From: Bacteroidales bacterium
GTDB taxonomy: Bacteria; Bacteroidota; Bacteroidia; Bacteroidales; JACABE01
Direction of reading: 5' to 3'
Length of the DNA stretch: 64,000 bases
NCBI GenBank assembly: GCA_038204725.1
Contig: JBBRCQ010000002.1
Location: 50,846 to 114,845, forward strand
Below the pieces are notes generated by a model. The model was not told the origin of the DNA. It ran no database searches and was given only the letters and a program-made list of their open reading frames with translations. This document shows positions 22,468-63,245 of this stretch, piece after piece. Position 1 is the stretch's first letter. Each line of letters opens with the position of its first letter. Both the position numbers and the translations under genes were made by a program.

Positions 22468-22788
22468 GATATTTCCAGCTTTTCGGAAGGAGACATTCAT
22501 GTATATCCAAATCCTGTGCAGGATTAGCTGAATGTACAGTTCAAAGGTACTGTCACTGCAGATGGCTGCAGCTATCAATTGTATGATGGAGAAGGCAGGC
22601 TTTTTTCAAGTAATGGAAGTATGCAAATGCTCACAAAAGTAAATATGCAACCTGCTAAAAAAGGGGTTTACTATTTAGTAGTATTGGCTAAAGATGGGAA
22701 TGAGAATGTATTGGAAAGTGGTGATGCAGTAAATGGCCTATCCCCCTTGCCCCCTTTCCAAAAGAAAGGGGGTAAGAGTTCCTCCTGA
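22468..22788 (+). pseudogene. Relic T9SS C-terminal sorting domain with an in-frame TAG (22525-22527)
   Basis: Reads DISSFSEGDIHVYPNPVQD*LNVQFKGTVTADGCSYQLYDGEGRLF...KKGVYYLVVLAKDG. There is no N-terminal body upstream. Confidence 0.6.
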
Positions 22789-23031
22789 ATGGAATATAAT
22801 TTTTCCAAAGGAAATAGATAATAATAGTTGTTTTCTTAAACAATGGCCGTTTCGGTGCTTACATCTTTACCTGTATGATAGCAGGTAGAACTAAGCCTAT
22901 CCCCCTTGCACCTTTCCAAAAGAAAGGGGGTAAGAGTTCCTCCTGAATGGAATATAATTTTCCCAAAGGAAATAGATAAGGATAGTTGTTTTCTTAAACA
23001 ATAGCAGTTTCGGTGCTTACATCTTTACCGG
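22737..23031. repeat. Tandem direct duplication, 159-bp period (copy A 22737-22873, copy B 22896-23031)
   Basis: The copies are near-identical over about 137 nt. Each includes the hairpin CCCCCTTTC-CAAAA-GAAAGGGGG and the last 12 codons of the minus-strand gene 22994..23749. Confidence 0.9.
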
Positions 23032-23749
23032 TTTGCCGGCGTGTAGAGCGGGCTTTGAGCTGGGTTTTGTAATAAAGGATCAGATCATTCAATTCATTGG
23101 CCATGGTGGAATAATCAAGTTCTTCATATTCGTTAGCACAAAATTCGATGGCATCGAAAAAGGAAAAGACGGCTTTGTCGGTTATAATACGTATGCTGCG
23201 TGAATCAATTTTTTCTGTGGTTCCATTTTCACCGGTACGCTGTAAAAACAGTTTGTCAAATTCCGTATTAACGATAGAAAGCTGATCGAACCATAACTTT
23301 AGATTTAATCCTTCCACTGCAGTTTTTACCTCGGGTTTTGCATCATAATCCTTCAGGAAATCGGTTATACGTTTGGTTTCTGAATTGTAGTTGGCCGATG
23401 CTATATCACGGCCATGAATGTCGAGAAAATGATTTAATACTTTAACATGTGGAACAATGGAAGGCAGACTTAGTTTTTCCATCGTTTTAACCTGAGCTGA
23501 AATGGCATTAAACAATGTGTCGCGTTCATTGTCCAGTTCCAGCAATTGATTGCTGATGACATTGCTCATTTCATGTGCTTTTATTTTTTCCAGCACTGGA
23601 AGTTTAAGGGTGATACCCTGAAACGACTTTGTTAAATGCAATTCGGATGTGTCGTATTTCTTTACGATCCCGACAATCTGGTTCACAAACATTGTATATT
23701 CGCTGTTCCAGAGTGTGTTTATTGATAAACGAATAATTTTTATTTTCAT
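22994..23749 (-). CDS. Hypothetical all-alpha protein (Bacteroidota-restricted family, DUF6261-like by recollection)
   Basis: 251 aa with no catalytic motifs. The helical heptad-like sequence has conserved-looking LDNERDTLF and NYNSETKRI segments. Confidence 0.5.
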   Translation of the reverse strand: MKIKIIRLSINTLWNSEYTMFVNQIVGIVKKYDTSELHLTKSFQGITLKLPVLEKIKAHEMSNVISNQLLELDNERDTLFNAISAQVKTMEKLSLPSIVPHVKVLNHFLDIHGRDIASANYNSETKRITDFLKDYDAKPEVKTAVEGLNLKLWFDQLSIVNTEFDKLFLQRTGENGTTEKIDSRSIRIITDKAVFSFFDAIEFCANEYEELDYSTMANELNDLILYYKTQLKARSTRRQTGKDVSTETAIV

Positions 23750-23980: not shown

Positions 23981-24247
23981 ACAAACTGAATCTGTTTTGA
24001 GCTAAACACGTGATGGAAAAGTCAAACTGAATCCGTTTTGAGCTAAACACTTGATGGAAAAGTCAAACTGAAACTGTTTTGAGCTAAACACGTGATGGAA
24101 ATGTCAAACTGAATCTGTTTTGAGCTAAACACGTGATGGAAAAGTCAAACTGAATCTGTTTTGAGCTAAACACTTGATGGAAATGTCAAACTGAATCTGT
24201 TTTGAGCTAAACACGTGATAGAAAAGGCAAACTGAATCTGTTTTTTT
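23981..24247. repeat. 41-bp tandem repeat x6.5 (TCAAACTGAATCTGTTTTGAGCTAAACACGTGATGGAAAAG)
   Basis: Units start at 23981, 24022, 24063, 24104, 24145, 24186 and 24227 (partial). Variation is confined to a few positions. CACGTG is present in units 1, 3, 4 and 6; CACTTG in units 2 and 5. Confidence 0.95.
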
Positions 24248-26903: not shown

Positions 26904-26940
26904 TATGTTAATCATTCTCTGTACTTTTGATTATCTTTGG

Positions 26941-26964
26941 ACTTCCGACTTCCGACTTCCGACT
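26941..26964. repeat. Heptamer array ACTTCCG x3.4
   Basis: Direct reading. Lies 12 nt from the stop of the minus-strand gene 26976..27425. Confidence 0.9.
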
Positions 26965-26975
26965 CAATCACCCAA

Positions 26976-36684: not shown

Positions 36685-36747
36685 CTGTTCACTATTCACT
36701 ATTCACTATTCACTTTTCACTTTTCGCTGTTCACTGTTCACTATTCG
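36685..36747. repeat. Mosaic module E: nine phased heptamers (CTGTTCA/CTATTCA/CTTTTCA...)
   Basis: Direct reading. The array ends 4 nt from the flippase stop codon at 36752 and reads AGTGAAY in the sense orientation. Confidence 0.95.
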
Positions 36748-38206: not shown

Positions 38207-38373
38207 ATCGATAATTTAATCTGCAAAATTAACAAAGCTTTTCAAAATTCCTAAAAATATTGTCATTTACAAGCATAGTTTGTATAATTTTGTAAAATTA
38301 TAATAGAAAATGTAGGTTGAATTTTACTTGAACTTCAAACGCAAAGGATACATCTCTGTTTAAAAGACTAATA

Positions 38374-39498
38374 TTGATGATAATAGCTGTAAATACAAGA
38401 CTTTTGTTGAAAGATAAATTGGATGGAATCGGATGGTTTGCTTTCGAAACATTTAAACGGATTACACAACAACATCCTGAGCATCAATTTATATTTTTCT
38501 TTGATCGGCCTTTTCATAATGATTTTGTTTTTGCTGAAAATGTTACACCGGTTGTGCTTCATCCGCCTTCCCGTCATCCGGTATTGTGGTATCTTTTTTT
38601 TGAATGGAGCGTTGTTAAAGCTCTTAAGAAATATAAGGCTGATGTATTTATCTCACCTGATGGTTGGCTTTCATTACGCACTAAAGTGAAGTCTCTAGCA
38701 GTGATTCATGATTTGAATTTCGAACATTTTCCTCAGTTTGTTAAGTTCTCTCACCGCTTATACATGAATTATTTTTTTCATCGCTTTGCCCGAAAGGCCG
38801 ATCGAATTGTCACTGTTTCTGAATATTCCAAGAACGATATTGCAACCATGTATGGCATTTCAAAAGATAAAATTGATGTGGTGTTCAATGGTTCTCACGA
38901 TTTGTATAAACCGGTTAATGATGAAATTAAAAATAAAATAAGAGTAACATTTACCGATGGGAATCCTTATTTTATATTTATTGGATCGTTGCATCCGCGT
39001 AAAAATCTTGTCAATTTATTTAAAGCGTTCGATGTCTTCAGGAAAACCTATACAACAAAAACAAAGTTAGTATTGGTTGGTCATAAACAATGGTGGAACA
39101 ACGAAATCTCCGAAACCTATAATAATATGGAGTTTAAAGAAGAAGTTGTTTTTACAGGAAGACTGGCGCCAGAAATATTGAATGAATTGTTGGCTTCCTC
39201 TCTTGCATTAACTTATGTTTCCCTTTTTGAAGGATTTGGAATTCCAATTGTAGAAGCTTTTTATGCTGAAACTGCAGTAATTACCTCAAATGTTACTTCT
39301 ATGCCTGAAATAGCTGGTGATGCTGCTTTACTGGTGGATCCTTTTTCGATTACTTCTATCGCTGAAGCTATGCATAAAATTGACTCTGATAAAGAATTGC
39401 GGGATTCATTAATAGAAAAGGGTAGAATAAGACGGTTGAACTATAGCTGGGGTCTGACTGCAGAAAAATTATGGGAATCCATTGAAAAGATTTTATAA
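38374..39498 (+). CDS. Glycosyltransferase family 4
   Basis: 374 aa starting MMIIAVNTRLLLKDKLDGIGWF, with the GT4 C-terminal signature SLFEGFGIPIVEAFYAETAVITSNVTSMPEIAGDAALLVDP. Confidence 0.8.
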   Translation: MMIIAVNTRLLLKDKLDGIGWFAFETFKRITQQHPEHQFIFFFDRPFHNDFVFAENVTPVVLHPPSRHPVLWYLFFEWSVVKALKKYKADVFISPDGWLSLRTKVKSLAVIHDLNFEHFPQFVKFSHRLYMNYFFHRFARKADRIVTVSEYSKNDIATMYGISKDKIDVVFNGSHDLYKPVNDEIKNKIRVTFTDGNPYFIFIGSLHPRKNLVNLFKAFDVFRKTYTTKTKLVLVGHKQWWNNEISETYNNMEFKEEVVFTGRLAPEILNELLASSLALTYVSLFEGFGIPIVEAFYAETAVITSNVTSMPEIAGDAALLVDPFSITSIAEAMHKIDSDKELRDSLIEKGRIRRLNYSWGLTAEKLWESIEKIL

Positions 39499-39581
39499 TT
39501 TATGGTTACAAAATCCGTTATATAGGAAACAATACATGAAATTCTGATTCATCGAACGAATCGTTGAAATGTTTGACAATT

Positions 39582-39630
39582 AAGACTGATATATAGTATC
39601 ATTTGCTAAAGTATGATGATACAGTCTTTT
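39582..39630 (+). terminator. Long hairpin + T-run after the GT4 gene
   Basis: AAGACTG...GTATCAT-loop-ATGATAC...CAGTCTT, followed by TTTT. Confidence 0.5.
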
Positions 39631-39648
39631 AAAAACGAATAAAAAAAA

Positions 39649-40281
39649 TTGAAATTGAGTAAAGATATATTGTTAGATCAGGGAAAAAAACTTCCTGTAA
39701 TGGAAGAATTTTACAGTTTGCAGGGAGAAGGATTTCATACAGGTGAAGCAGCCTATTTTATAAGGGTCGGTGGATGTGATGTTGGATGTTATTGGTGCGA
39801 TGTAAAAGAATCGTGGAATGCTGATACACATCCTGCAATTTTTACCGATGCTATCATCGAAAGAGCAACTGGTTTTCCTGCAAAAGCAGTTATTGTAACC
39901 GGTGGTGAACCATTAAATTATAACCTGAATTACATATGCGATCAACTTCAACAAAGAGGCATAAAAACATTTTTAGAAACATCGGGTTCTCTTCCCATGA
40001 GTGGAAAATGGGACTGGATTTGTCTTTCTCCCAAACAAAATATACCACCTGTTGCAGCCAACTTTTTGTTGGCAGGCGAATTGAAAGTAATTATTTCTGA
40101 AGATGCTGACTTTGGATGGGCTGAACTGAATGCCGCAAAAGTAAAACACGGATGTATTATGTATCTGCAACCCGAATGGAGCAAAAGAAATGAAATGATG
40201 CCTAAAATTGTTGACTATGTAATGATGCATCCAGAATGGAAAATATCGTTGCAAAGTCATAAGTATATGAGGATTCCTTAA
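39649..40281 (+). CDS. queE: 7-carboxy-7-deazaguanine synthase (radical SAM)
   Basis: 210 aa with EEFYSLQGEGFHTGEAAYFIRVGGCDVGCYWCD. The track start is TTG at 39649; an ATG (MEEFYSLQ) at 39700 is an alternative start. Confidence 0.85.
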   Translation: MKLSKDILLDQGKKLPVMEEFYSLQGEGFHTGEAAYFIRVGGCDVGCYWCDVKESWNADTHPAIFTDAIIERATGFPAKAVIVTGGEPLNYNLNYICDQLQQRGIKTFLETSGSLPMSGKWDWICLSPKQNIPPVAANFLLAGELKVIISEDADFGWAELNAAKVKHGCIMYLQPEWSKRNEMMPKIVDYVMMHPEWKISLQSHKYMRIP

Positions 40282-40291
40282 GTAAGAGAGA

Positions 40292-40417
40292 TAAGTCGGA
40301 AGTCGGAAGTCGGAAGTCGGAAGTCCGAAGTCGGAAGTCGGAAGTCCGAAGATTGAAGATTGAAGATTGAAGATTGAAGATTGAAGATTGAAGATTGAAG
40401 ATTGAAGATTGAAGATT
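40292..40417. repeat. 18 phased heptamers: 8 x GAAGTC(G/C), then 10 x GAAGATT
   Basis: Direct reading. The GAAGATT copies start at 40348, 40355 ... 40411. Confidence 0.97.
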
Positions 40418-40459
40418 GAAAAAGACCAATTACCAATAATATAATAACTAAAATATAGA

Positions 40460-42418
40460 ATGCAAAGACATAACCTGGTAAGAACAATATTGCTGTTATT
40501 GATGATGGTCTTTATGACAAGTATTTCTTATTCGCAAAAAGGAGTACCATTAAGTTCGAAATCGAAAAAAGCCATCAAGTATTATGAAAATGCCACGCGT
40601 TTTTATGATGCGCGTAATAATTTGTTATGCATTGAAGAATTACACAAAGCTGTGGATGAAGATCCTGAATTTATTGAAGCTTATTTTTTAATGGCAGCAG
40701 TTTACAATGATTTACGGAAAAAGGAAGATGCCATTGTTGCCTATCAAAAAGCCATCGCCATCAAAGAAGATTTTTATCCGGGTGCCCTTTTTGCGCTGGG
40801 TAATCTTCAGCTTTCAATCGGTAGATACGAAGATGCAGGCATCAACTATCAAAAATATTTAGAACTAGATCAAGGATCACCTGTTAATCTTAAGGCGGCA
40901 AAAAAAGCATTGAAAATTATTGATTTTGCCATGTATCAACTTGCTCATCCTGTACCTTTCAACCTGATAAATATGGGAAGCAATGTGAATTCTGAAAATG
41001 ATGAGTATCTACCGGCCATCACTGCTGATGAACAAACGCTTGTAATTACAGTTTGTCGTCAGAGAGATGATCATACGATCGGTCAGGGAAATAAGCTGGA
41101 AGAAGACTTCTATATAAGCCATAAAGTCAACGGTGTTTGGTCGAAAGCCGAAAATATGGGGCCACCATTGAATACGCATGGAAACGAAGGTGCACAATGT
41201 ATTTCGCCGGATGGACAAAATATTTATTTTACCGCCTGCAACCGTGACGATGGTTATGGAAGCTGTGATATTTATTATACCCATAAAATTGGGAATGCAT
41301 GGACAATACCGGTAAATCTTGGTGAAACTGTAAATACATCTAAATGGGAATCCCAACCTTCAATATCATCGGATGGAAAAACTTTATATTTTACAAGTGC
41401 ACGTGATGGAGGAAAAGGAGGTATGGATATATGGAAAACTATATTAAATGAAGAGGGGAAATGGAGTGTTCCGGTTAATTTGGGAGATAGTATCAATACT
41501 ATATTTGATGAAGTCTCACCTTTTATTCATCCTGATAATCAAACACTTTATTTTTCTTCGGACGGGAGATTGGGTATGGGAGGCAAAGATATTTATTATT
41601 CTCGTAAAAATGTGAAGGGAGAATGGGGTAGACCTGTAAATATTGGTTATCCCATCAATACCTATGCCGACGAGATTAATCTCGTAGTAAATGCCAAAGG
41701 TGATTTGGCTTATTTCTCCTCTAACAAACCCGGTGGAATGGGCAGACTCGATTTGTATAGTTTTGAACTGTATCCTGAAGCACGGCCATTGGCAGTTAAT
41801 TATATGAAAGGCAAAGTTTACGACAGCGAAACCAACAGGAATTTAGAAGCCAGATTTGAATTGATCAACCTTGAAAATGGTGAAATGGTTATGCAATCCA
41901 AGTCCAATGCTTTGTCAGGTGAATTTTTAGTGTGTCTTCCGGTGGATAAAAACTACGCATTGAATATTTCAAAAGAAGGTTATTTGTTTTATTCCGAAAA
42001 TTTTTCCATGGAAGGAAATCATTCCGAAATGAAACCTTTTTTGAAAGACTTACCATTAAAACCTATTAAAGTTGGAGCCTCTGTAGTGTTGAAAAATATA
42101 TTCTTTGAAACCGATCAGTTTAATTTAAAACCTGAATCCAAAGTGGAATTGAATAAGCTGATGACTTTTTTGATGCAAAATCCTCGCATGAAGATAGAAA
42201 TCAGTGGCCATACCGATAATGTCGGTACCGAAAAATACAATCTTACCTTATCGGACAACAGAGCAAAATCAGTTTTTGATTATTTGATTGCCAATGGAGT
42301 TGTATCAACACGATTGACATACAAAGGCTACGGATGGTCAAAGCCAATTGAAAGTAATGATACTGAAAGTGGAAGAGCAAATAACAGGAGGACAGAATTT
42401 AAAGTGGTTGCGAATTAA
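40460..42418 (+). CDS. OmpA-family protein with N-terminal TPR repeats and TolB-like (PD40/WD40-like) beta-propeller repeats
   Basis: 652 aa. Signal peptide, TPR region, repeated SPDGQNIYF/SSDGKTLYFTS motifs, and an OmpA_C domain (ISGHTDNVGTEKYNLTLSDNRAKSV...NRRTEFKV). Confidence 0.85.
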   Translation: MQRHNLVRTILLLLMMVFMTSISYSQKGVPLSSKSKKAIKYYENATRFYDARNNLLCIEELHKAVDEDPEFIEAYFLMAAVYNDLRKKEDAIVAYQKAIAIKEDFYPGALFALGNLQLSIGRYEDAGINYQKYLELDQGSPVNLKAAKKALKIIDFAMYQLAHPVPFNLINMGSNVNSENDEYLPAITADEQTLVITVCRQRDDHTIGQGNKLEEDFYISHKVNGVWSKAENMGPPLNTHGNEGAQCISPDGQNIYFTACNRDDGYGSCDIYYTHKIGNAWTIPVNLGETVNTSKWESQPSISSDGKTLYFTSARDGGKGGMDIWKTILNEEGKWSVPVNLGDSINTIFDEVSPFIHPDNQTLYFSSDGRLGMGGKDIYYSRKNVKGEWGRPVNIGYPINTYADEINLVVNAKGDLAYFSSNKPGGMGRLDLYSFELYPEARPLAVNYMKGKVYDSETNRNLEARFELINLENGEMVMQSKSNALSGEFLVCLPVDKNYALNISKEGYLFYSENFSMEGNHSEMKPFLKDLPLKPIKVGASVVLKNIFFETDQFNLKPESKVELNKLMTFLMQNPRMKIEISGHTDNVGTEKYNLTLSDNRAKSVFDYLIANGVVSTRLTYKGYGWSKPIESNDTESGRANNRRTEFKVVAN

Positions 42419-42468: not shown

Positions 42469-42741
42469 ATGAATTTCAATAGCATCTTGTTGAATGGCAA
42501 AAGTATCCGGTTGAATGTCAAAAGCATCCGTATGAGTAGCAAAAGCTTATTAACGAATTAAAAAACCAACCGGATGAATAGCAAAAGTATTCGGGTGAGT
42601 GATAAAACCATCCAGATGAATTGCAAAAGCATACTGACGAATGATAAAACCAACCGGACGAATTGCAAATGCATCTGAATAAATACCAAAAGCATTCCCG
42701 TGAATGGCAATACTGTTTCATTGAATTGCTGTAAAGGATTT
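42469..42741. repeat. Degenerate 21-nt tandem repeat, about 13 units (consensus RTGAATNGCAAAAGCATCCGG)
   Basis: Units were phased by eye from 42469. Stops occur in all frames. Confidence 0.8.
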
Positions 42742-53080: not shown

Positions 53081-53100
53081 GGGTGTTGGTTGTTGATAAA

Positions 53101-53156
53101 TGGTTAATGGTTAATGGTTATCAAGACGGAAGACTGAAGTCGGAAGACCGAAGACA
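53101..53156. repeat. Eight phased heptamers: TGGTTAA x2, TGGTTAT, then CAAGACG GAAGACT GAAGTCG GAAGACC GAAGACA
   Basis: Direct reading. Starts 20 nt upstream of the moaC start and reads TAACCAT x3 in the sense orientation. Confidence 0.95.
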
Positions 53157-53191
53157 TTTAACTACGGACACGTGGTATTGGTTTTAGGTTT

Positions 53192-53224
53192 TTCGAAATT
53201 CGTAATTTGTAATTCGTAATTTTT
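53192..53224. repeat. Heptamer array TTCGAAA TTCGTAA TTTGTAA TTCGTAA abutting the moaA stop codon
   Basis: Direct reading. Confidence 0.9.
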
Positions 53225-59322: not shown

Positions 59323-59418
59323 GCACTTCGACTATGCTCAGTGACCGCACTTCGACTATGCTCAGTGACCGCACTTCGACTATGCTCAGTGACCGCACTT
59401 CGACTATGCTCAGTGGCC
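59323..59418. repeat. 24-nt tandem repeat x4 (GCACTTCGACTATGCTCAGTGACC)
   Basis: Units at 59323, 59347, 59371 and 59395 (the last has G for A). They abut with no spacers. Confidence 0.97.
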
Positions 59419-59459
59419 GGATATTTTGTCTTTGATCTTCCGTCTCAATAATCCGGCAA

Positions 59460-62653: not shown

Positions 62654-63100
62654 ATGATTCCGCTTAATTTCCCATCATTTCCATTTAAAATTAGAAAAAC
62701 ACAGAAAGGTGAAGAGATTTTTGATATAATCCGGAAGAAATATGTTGCATTTACTGAAGAGGAATGGGTAAGGCAGCATTGTATTGCCTATCTGATCAGT
62801 GAAAAAAAATATCCTGCATCACTTATGGCAGTAGAAAAAGGACTTAGCGTAAACGGACTTAAGAAAAGAACTGATATTGTTACTTTTACAAAGGATGGAA
62901 ACCCTAAACTGATTGTTGAATGTAAAGCTCCACATATTGAGATTACGAATGATACATTTGATCAGATTGCTCGTTACAACATGACGTTGAAAGTTAATTA
63001 TCTATTGGTTACCAATGGATTGCAACATTTTTGCTGTGTTATTGATCATCAGGAAGGCAGTTACAGATTTTTGGAAGAAGTGCCTGAGTATGGTCAGTGA
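62654..63100 (+). CDS. Stand-alone type I restriction enzyme HsdR N-terminal-domain-like (HSDR_N_2) protein
   Basis: 148 aa with LNFPSFPFKIRKTQKGEEIFDIIRKKYVAFTEEEWVRQH...RTDIVTF...LIVECKAP, a PD-(D/E)xK-like core. The family is common in Bacteroidota. Confidence 0.7.
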   Translation: MIPLNFPSFPFKIRKTQKGEEIFDIIRKKYVAFTEEEWVRQHCIAYLISEKKYPASLMAVEKGLSVNGLKKRTDIVTFTKDGNPKLIVECKAPHIEITNDTFDQIARYNMTLKVNYLLVTNGLQHFCCVIDHQEGSYRFLEEVPEYGQ

Positions 63101-63150
63101 AGAGTGAAGAGTGAAGAGTGAAGAGTGAATAGAGAATAGTGAATAGTGAA
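63094..63150. repeat. Heptamer array (AGAGTGA x4, ATAGAGA, ATAGTGA x2) that includes the TGA stop of the upstream gene
   Basis: Direct reading. The stop at 63098-63100 is in phase with the array. Confidence 0.95.
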
Positions 63151-63210
63151 TTTATTTATCCCGACGGGTACGAAGTTCCCGACGGGTTAAATAAGAAGTA
63201 ATCAATTATT

Positions 63211-63245
63211 AGTGAACAGTGAATAGTGAATAGTGAACAGTGAAT
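63211..63245. repeat. Heptamer array AGTGAAC AGTGAAT AGTGAAT AGTGAAC AGTGAAT
   Basis: Direct reading. It is the reverse complement of module E at 36685-36747. Confidence 0.95.

Follow-up and report, generated by a model that had tools for sequence, protein, structure and literature searches.

The window, a 64,000-nt stretch of a Bacteroidales draft genome, carries a heptamer array of 126 nt (40292-40417) between two genes that are both read on the + strand (Table 1). For the product of the upstream gene, the best NCBIfam matches are all QueE models, under the cut-off (115 bits vs 200), and for the product of the downstream gene, the nearest families are PorE, of type IX secretion, and the CHU_0125 'outer membrane integrity' family, again under the curated cut-offs. 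Together with the domain matches, these results agree with the assignment of the flanks to queE and to an OmpA-family TPR/PD40 gene in a previous sequence-only reading of this DNA, the former being better worded as a QueE-like radical-SAM gene. All 31 genomes searched contain relatives of the downstream protein, most of them a single clear orthologue, and by its sequence this protein appears to be a conserved protein of the envelope/peptidoglycan-anchoring type and no obviously variable surface antigen.

Table 1. Coordinates of the array, its leader, and the flanking and overlapping reading frames (window positions)
Feature	Position	Strand	Remarks
QueE-like radical-SAM gene (7-carboxy-7-deazaguanine synthase family)	39649..40281; alternative ATG 39700	+	Radical_SAM, Fer4_12; stop TAA 40279-40281
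Block 1: TAAGTCG + 7 x GAAGTCS (S = G,G,G,C,G,G,C)	40292..40347	+	sense, stop-proximal GAAGWCS type
Perfect 2 x 21-nt duplication (GAAGTCG GAAGTCG GAAGTCC) in block 1	40306..40347	+	21-mer identity; TRF period-21 row
Block 2: 10 perfect GAAGATT units, in register with block 1	40348..40417	+	
Start-proximal leader, array to ATG	40418..40459	+	two ACCAATW units 40425-40438, AATAAC motif, in-frame TAA 40445
652-aa TPR + PD40 + OmpA_C protein, N-terminal hydrophobic signal-like segment	40460..42418	+	resembles PorE (T9SS) and CHU_0125
Two overlapping ORFs, FNLQSSI / DFRLPTS repeats	40202..40429 and 40278..40487	-	translation artefacts

The array is composed of 18 units in one register. On one side, 10 nt separate it from the queE-like stop codon; on the other, 42 nt separate it from the ATG at 40460, a gap that had earlier been put at 43 nt. 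Starting at 40292, the units are TAAGTCG, GAAGTCG (three copies), GAAGTCC, GAAGTCG (two copies), GAAGTCC, and then GAAGATT (ten copies) up to 40417, where GAAAAAG follows directly. The description of the array as eight GAAGTCS units followed by ten GAAGATT units is thus right for all ten of the latter and for seven of the former, the first unit being TAAGTCG, with T for G. Read unit by unit, the array also bears out the claim that the word switches at 40348 without loss of phase. The whole spacer is laid out as stop codon, 10 nt, GAAGTCS block, GAAGATT block, ACCAATT-ACCAATA (40425-40438), 21 nt, and ATG, and the AATAAC motif of its start-proximal part is common to the leaders of congeners.

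The length of the heptamer array is far above chance. In a chance test, the dimer pattern of block 1, GAAGTCSGAAGTCS, gave 11 matches vs 0.01 expected, and that of block 2, GAAGATTGAAGATT, gave 9 matches vs 0.09 expected; TRF scores the two blocks at 104 and 146. The array is a genuine tandem repeat of the slippage type, as had been proposed. A higher-order duplication of about 21 nt had also been suspected within block 1, and positions 40306-40326 are indeed identical to 40327-40347; with two copies and two C-units, this higher order cannot be told apart from chance placement. Within the window, the array is the longest and purest of the heptamer arrays, but not, as had been stated, of all arrays, since tandem repeats of longer period exceed it in length (22736-23032, 23982-24244, and 42469-42710; TRF). 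The last of these lies directly 3' of the OmpA-family gene and is a degenerate 21/42/84-nt tandem array with a 3 x 7 periodicity and 61-81% matches (TRF). In the genome as a whole, the array is the fourth longest of period 7 (131 nt by our own period-7 detector), and among perfect heptamer runs its GAAGATT stretch ranks sixth in length.

Several readings of the array as coding sequence were considered and rejected, and the array is not in an ORF. The two minus-strand ORFs exist only by reading through the repeat, which gives them their repeat peptides, and they overlap both of the real flanking genes; their dismissal as artefacts in the sequence-only reading is upheld. On the + strand, block 2 presents a TGA stop in each of the three frames every 21 nt, so every frame that enters it is closed, and an N-terminal extension of the OmpA-family gene into the array would meet the in-frame TAA at 40445. 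An assembly artefact is unlikely, given that the array is 126 nt long and lies inside a 172-kb contig. Of the four longest perfect heptamer runs in the genome, three (19.4, 15.6, and 15 copies) fall exactly at contig ends (C91:1-136, C50:1-109, and C56:24376-24480). Long perfect arrays thus seem to break the assembly, and true copy numbers may be under-assembled. Exact-match scans of metagenomes with the left and the right array junction returned 0 matches each, a result that has no bearing on whether the copy number is invariant.

Comparison with relatives suggests that the spacer was once much shorter. The order of the queE-like gene and the OmpA-family gene is kept across the genus and the family, and in the more distant relatives (L038-L045) the orthologous spacer measures 9-45 nt. 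Among congeners it is 25 nt in one genome (G007), 83 and 87 nt without repeats in two others (G003 and G010, respectively), and 80-204 nt in the rest. Where repeats do occur in the orthologous spacer, their words differ: AACAGTG and AACCAAT in G006 and its near relative L004; GAAATTA / GGAATTA in G005; AATTATT, an 8-mer GAATAAYT array of ~11 units, and AACCAAT in G001; and a GTAAAGK type in G011. Neither GAAGTCS nor GAAGATT was found in the orthologous queE-ompA spacer of any congener compared, and the last ~20 nt before the ATG are recognisably alike in the source genome, G011, and G007. Repeats may have arisen at this site time and again, or one old array may have switched to other words. 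The present array is a species-specific expansion in an ancestrally short spacer that is repeat-prone in the genus. In G002 and a near relative (L033 / L001), the OmpA-family orthologue has no queE upstream and no heptamer array there; the region upstream of the G002 orthologue carries a terminator-like hairpin and T-run.

The words themselves were also followed beyond this spacer. Three consecutive GAAGATT units occur only at this locus within the genome and in 0 of 30 relatives, and TRF reports a single GAAGATT array in the genome. As for GAAGTCS, three consecutive units are found in 8 of 12 congeners, at loci other than this spacer, and in 8 of ~200 further genomes of the Bacteroidales. One genome from another family of the same order (G190) has 13 such GAAGTCS matches on many contigs, the word being abundant there independently or shared. 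For AGTGAAY in three consecutive units, there are 136 matches in the source genome, none in 10 of the 12 congeners, and 2 and 9, respectively, in the remaining two (G006 and G010). The heptamer vocabulary is strongly species-specific in these comparisons, with a rapid turnover between congeners.

Sequence signals for transcription within the spacer are sparse. No intrinsic terminator was found between the two genes on the + strand. Matches to sigma70-like promoters occur at the chance rate (6 vs 5.9 expected), and hexamers of the sigma70 type are not expected for the primary sigma factors of Bacteroidetes. The -35 of the best such match, TTGAAA-18-TATAAT (40416-40445), coincides with the distal end of the array; consequently, gain or loss of units would not alter the -35/-10 spacing. 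As for the Bacteroidetes -7 box, TAnnTTTG, none is present on the + strand from 38293 to 41499, and the nearest upstream copy, at 38285, precedes a glycosyltransferase gene; the motif itself is not enriched in the window (118 vs 109 expected), so that its absence carries little weight. Because no promoter or terminator motif rises above chance and the ancestral spacer is short, the two genes are probably co-transcribed, and the array would then lie in an intercistronic leader between the queE-like and porE-like cistrons. The predicted fold of the leader RNA is unremarkable (z = -1.0 vs shuffles), with a weak local stem in block 1 alone, and on this value a riboswitch, an attenuator, or a REP-like hairpin was rejected.

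The array is one member of a large class. The genome surveyed is a 4.12-Mb draft in 141 contigs (34% GC), in which TRF reports 1614 tandem repeats. Period 7 dominates these (295 repeats, with 156 of period 14 and 101 of period 21), and our own period-7 detector found 274 arrays vs 3 in the block-shuffled genome. Of these arrays, 241 (88%) are intergenic, vs ~18% of non-coding DNA, a count that rests, like the counts of position given below, on genome-wide gene coordinates from a crude longest-ORF caller (~82% of the genome coding). There are ~60 canonical heptamer words, the commonest being AGTGAAY (AATAGTG / AACAGTG), AACCATT, AACCAAT, AATTACG, and the GAAGWCS family. At 18 places in the genome, a run of at least 3 identical units passes into a run of another word, and 16 of these 18 switches are in register, 9 by a single substitution and most by 1-2 substitutions. 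Switching in register fits the mutation of one unit followed by its amplification through slippage. The switch from block 1 to block 2 (TCS to ATT), with three substitutions, is at the upper end among those of the genome.

The genes that face the 20 longest arrays are of diverse kinds. They encode BamD/YfiO, UvrC, an M48 peptidase, PriA, an FKBP isomerase, an amidohydrolase, IspG/GcpE, a 23S-IVP protein, NAD kinase, a pterin-binding enzyme, a PKD/T9SS-sorted protein, urocanase, TauE, acyl carrier protein, a carbamoyltransferase, an EamA transporter, a flavoprotein oxidoreductase, an aspartyl protease, one unknown, and the present OmpA-family protein. About 3 of the 20 are envelope proteins, and most of the others are housekeeping (core metabolism, DNA repair). 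Thus, among the 20 longest arrays, no preferential link with surface, host-interaction, or restriction-modification genes was found.

The placement of the arrays follows rules of position. Convergent spacers carry 0.50 arrays per kb, tandem (co-directional) ones 0.41, and divergent ones 0.18; that is, arrays avoid divergent (promoter-only) spacers. In co-directional spacers, 96 arrays are nearer the upstream stop vs 66 nearer the downstream start (p = 0.02), and 49 begin within 15 nt past the stop. The individual words differ in this respect. Sense AGTGAAY/R arrays (n = 52) begin at a median of 21 nt past the stop, with 26 within 20 nt of a stop and 0 within 20 nt of a start. Sense GAAGWCS arrays (n = 13) lie at a median of 9 nt (9-11) past the stop, with 9 within 20 nt of a stop and 0 within 20 nt of a start; the antisense arrays of this family (n = 12) are at least 68 nt from the stop and nearer the start, with 0 within 20 nt of either. 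The sense AACCATT arrays (n = 22) are located at a median of 16.5 nt before the ATG, 14 of them within 20 nt of the start, and those of AACCAAT (n = 9) at a median of 25 nt before it, 4 of them within 20 nt. Examples in the window of arrays belonging to this position/strand pattern are at 63095-63244, 36685-36725, 53097-53221, and 26939-26965. The spacer between the queE-like and OmpA-family genes follows the same stop- and start-proximal layout, and the array is therefore positioned relative to the 3' end of the QueE-like gene. It leaves ~40 nt next to the start codon intact.

These findings bear directly on the proposal, made in the sequence-only reading, that the array is a contingency switch acting on a surface-protein gene by altering the geometry of its promoter or leader. 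In this hypothesis, the locus would be phase- or rheostat-variable, and gain or loss of 7-nt units would tune the OmpA-family gene via the length of its leader, much as has been described for the AGAT repeat of Moraxella catarrhalis uspA2 (a precedent cited in PMC4679880). The array is long and highly pure, hence mutable, and it ends a short distance (42 nt) upstream of an envelope-protein gene. Furthermore, the sigma70-like match abuts its end, and the different short-period arrays that several congeners carry in the same spacer mark the site as prone to repeats. However, the switch is left unsupported because the array is one of ~274 of its kind, the longest of which stand next to mostly housekeeping genes, and because arrays are depleted in divergent spacers and the sense GAAGWCS arrays are placed relative to the upstream stop rather than to the downstream gene. 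In addition, the + strand has no -7 box in the region searched, and the lone sigma70-like match, itself at the chance rate, has the array upstream of its -35 rather than between the hexamers. The ancestral spacer of 9-45 nt suggests co-transcription with queE, and the downstream product resembles a conserved periplasmic peptidoglycan anchor of the PorE/CHU_0125 type, with orthologues across the 31 genomes searched, rather than a variable antigen. Finally, the organism is an environmental Bacteroidales MAG and not a host-adapted pathogen. A contingency locus is consequently held to be quite unlikely, and no evidence was seen of a switch dedicated to the OmpA-family gene.

Another hypothesis concerns the RNA rather than the DNA. 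The words are biased in strand relative to transcription (161:76 over all words, p = 3.5e-8), and for several of them the bias is strong (18:2 for AACAGTG, 17:4 for AATTACG, and 8:0 for AAGAGTG). Such a bias, together with the separate rules for stop-proximal and start-proximal words, would be expected if the RNA of the array served as a multivalent platform for a single-strand-binding protein with a footprint of ~7 nt, of the cold-shock or S1 type, as part of a genome-wide post-transcriptional network on intercistronic regions and 3'/5' UTRs. Next to no structure is predicted for the RNA of the array, which would leave it accessible. For TAACTGA repeats, binders of the S1, Csp, or CsrA type have been suggested, and CspB is named as a protein that binds heptamer repeats, one protein per heptamer (MacGregor 2015, PMC4679880). 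In Nostoc, a preprint has reported modest reporter effects of removing the heptamer repeats at recO, so that deletion alters the responses of the reporter, but this is indirect evidence, from an organism of a different phylum. Moreover, the present array is not conserved even in congeners, GAAGATT is unique to the locus, so that no dedicated binding factor would be expected for it, and the GAAGWCS family, to which block 1 belongs, has no net strand bias (~13:12). An RNA platform at this locus is thus regarded as unlikely.

The GAAGWCS family has additional features elsewhere in the genome. In one co-directional spacer (C51:20684-20926), an inverted GAAGWCS pair is found ~195 nt apart, with the sense array 12 nt past the stop and the antisense array 46 nt before the next start; long-range pairing between the two is conceivable. 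It is common for GAAGWCS arrays to end in GAAGAAAAAA or GAAGACA (C58:11254-11320, C54, the C15:38403 region, and C71; also 59323-59419 of the window), and after these ends there is a dispersed motif, ACTGAGCGAAGTCGAAGT(G/A)TGG, which is itself tandem in places (a 24-nt unit in 4 copies by TRF).

Features of this sort have suggested that the present array might be what is left, or one end, of a MITE- or REP-like mosaic element that was mobile and brought heptamers into the spacer. Elsewhere, GAAGWCS arrays do precede the dispersed motif with ACTGAGCGAAGTCGAAGT as well as hairpin modules, one spacer contains the inverted pair just described, and a vector would ease the explanation of how one word came to spread in a species-specific manner. 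At this locus, however, there are no inverted repeats, TIRs, hairpin module, dispersed motif, or target duplication. Unique spacer sequence adjoins the array directly, and the start-proximal part of this sequence resembles that of congeners. A mobile element is accordingly judged highly improbable here.

Given all of these findings, the array is probably best explained as a recent heptamer repeat, grown by slippage and belonging to the known intergenic class, in a likely intercistronic leader. In this model, 7-nt units would expand by replication slippage, a change from TCS to ATT would arise in one unit without loss of register, and that unit would then be amplified to ten perfect copies. Since all ten GAAGATT units are perfect, block 2 would be the most recent event. 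Any effect on the downstream gene would be exerted via the length or composition of the leader and not via promoter spacing.

Two observations stand against plain slippage. The same words fill dozens of spacers in one species and not in its congeners, and the words are placed in a strand- and position-specific manner. Vocabulary and placement point to a selective or mechanistic constraint, possibly at the level of RNA. Plain slippage leaves both the position/strand pattern and the vocabulary unexplained, and there is therefore a modest chance of some RNA-level function. A more far-reaching hypothesis is that the heptamer arrays of this species stem from an undescribed system by which particular 7-nt words are written or selected at set positions in transcripts, the present array being a working 3'-end or intercistronic module. 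The pattern behind this reading is that purine-rich words (AGTGAAY, GAAGWCS) come after stops and AACCAWT before starts, with the vocabulary replaced between congeners; such a system is nevertheless considered unlikely.

The short tandemly repeated heptamers of cyanobacteria are known as STRR. One of the closest parallels to the present array is found in the TAACTGA heptamer arrays, which abound between genes in Beggiatoaceae, cyanobacteria, and five Bacteroidetes. Other heptamers are frequently interspersed with them, and the same spacers of close relatives lack them (MacGregor 2015, PMC4679880). The likenesses are considerable: both are head-to-tail 7-mers, intergenic, many per genome, with mixed words, and sporadic across lineages, and the Gramella and Aequorivita cases in that paper match the absence from the same spacer in relatives that is seen here. 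TAACTGA-like arrays are also present in the same genome (TRF). The differences lie in the words, GAAGTCS and GAAGATT, and in the location, which is stop-adjacent and 42 nt from the start, whereas the BOGUAY arrays described there are within several nt of the start codon and in forward orientation. The present array was accordingly rejected as a strict TAACTGA array of the BOGUAY pattern, its word being different and its first unit starting 10 nt past a stop. In addition, the vocabulary of at least 60 words and the stop-/start-proximal split found here are not mentioned in the sections of PMC4679880 on which this comparison is based.

A second parallel is with the LSSRs of Mrazek 2007, which have units of 5-11 nt, with the heptanucleotide class the most abundant, and for which polymerase slippage has been proposed (as summarised in PMC4679880). 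With these and with STRR, the present arrays share a dominant heptanucleotide class, the avoidance of coding sequence, and slippage as the proposed generator, and the purity and in-register switching of the arrays are in keeping with such a mechanism. They differ in occurring in an uncultured Bacteroidales lineage, in their species-specific vocabulary, and in the placement of words by position. In being tandem, 7 nt in unit, numerous, intergenic, and lineage-specific, the array has the features of the heptanucleotide LSSR or intergenic heptamer class. An element of the REP, BIME, or MITE type was set aside, the fold z being -1.0 and the spacer having no inverted partner. With the AGAT repeat in the 5'UTR of uspA2, the array has in common that it is a short tandem repeat upstream of an envelope-protein gene, possibly in the leader, but it differs from uspA2 and from other contingency loci in its 7-nt unit and in belonging to a genome-wide class found beside housekeeping genes, and no sign was seen of a link with variable surface genes or of a position between promoter and start.

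Taken alone, then, the array is unremarkable within a repeat class that is known but poorly understood, and to read it as a surface-antigen switch would be unwarranted. It is at the level of the genome that the case becomes more useful, as an unusually rich and orderly instance of heptamer repeats, with word usage set by strand and position, turnover in register, and a near-complete change of vocabulary between congeners. Such a genome makes more testable the old question of whether these arrays are the neutral debris of slippage or regulatory modules acting at the level of RNA, and with it the question of how one word spreads to dozens of spacers.
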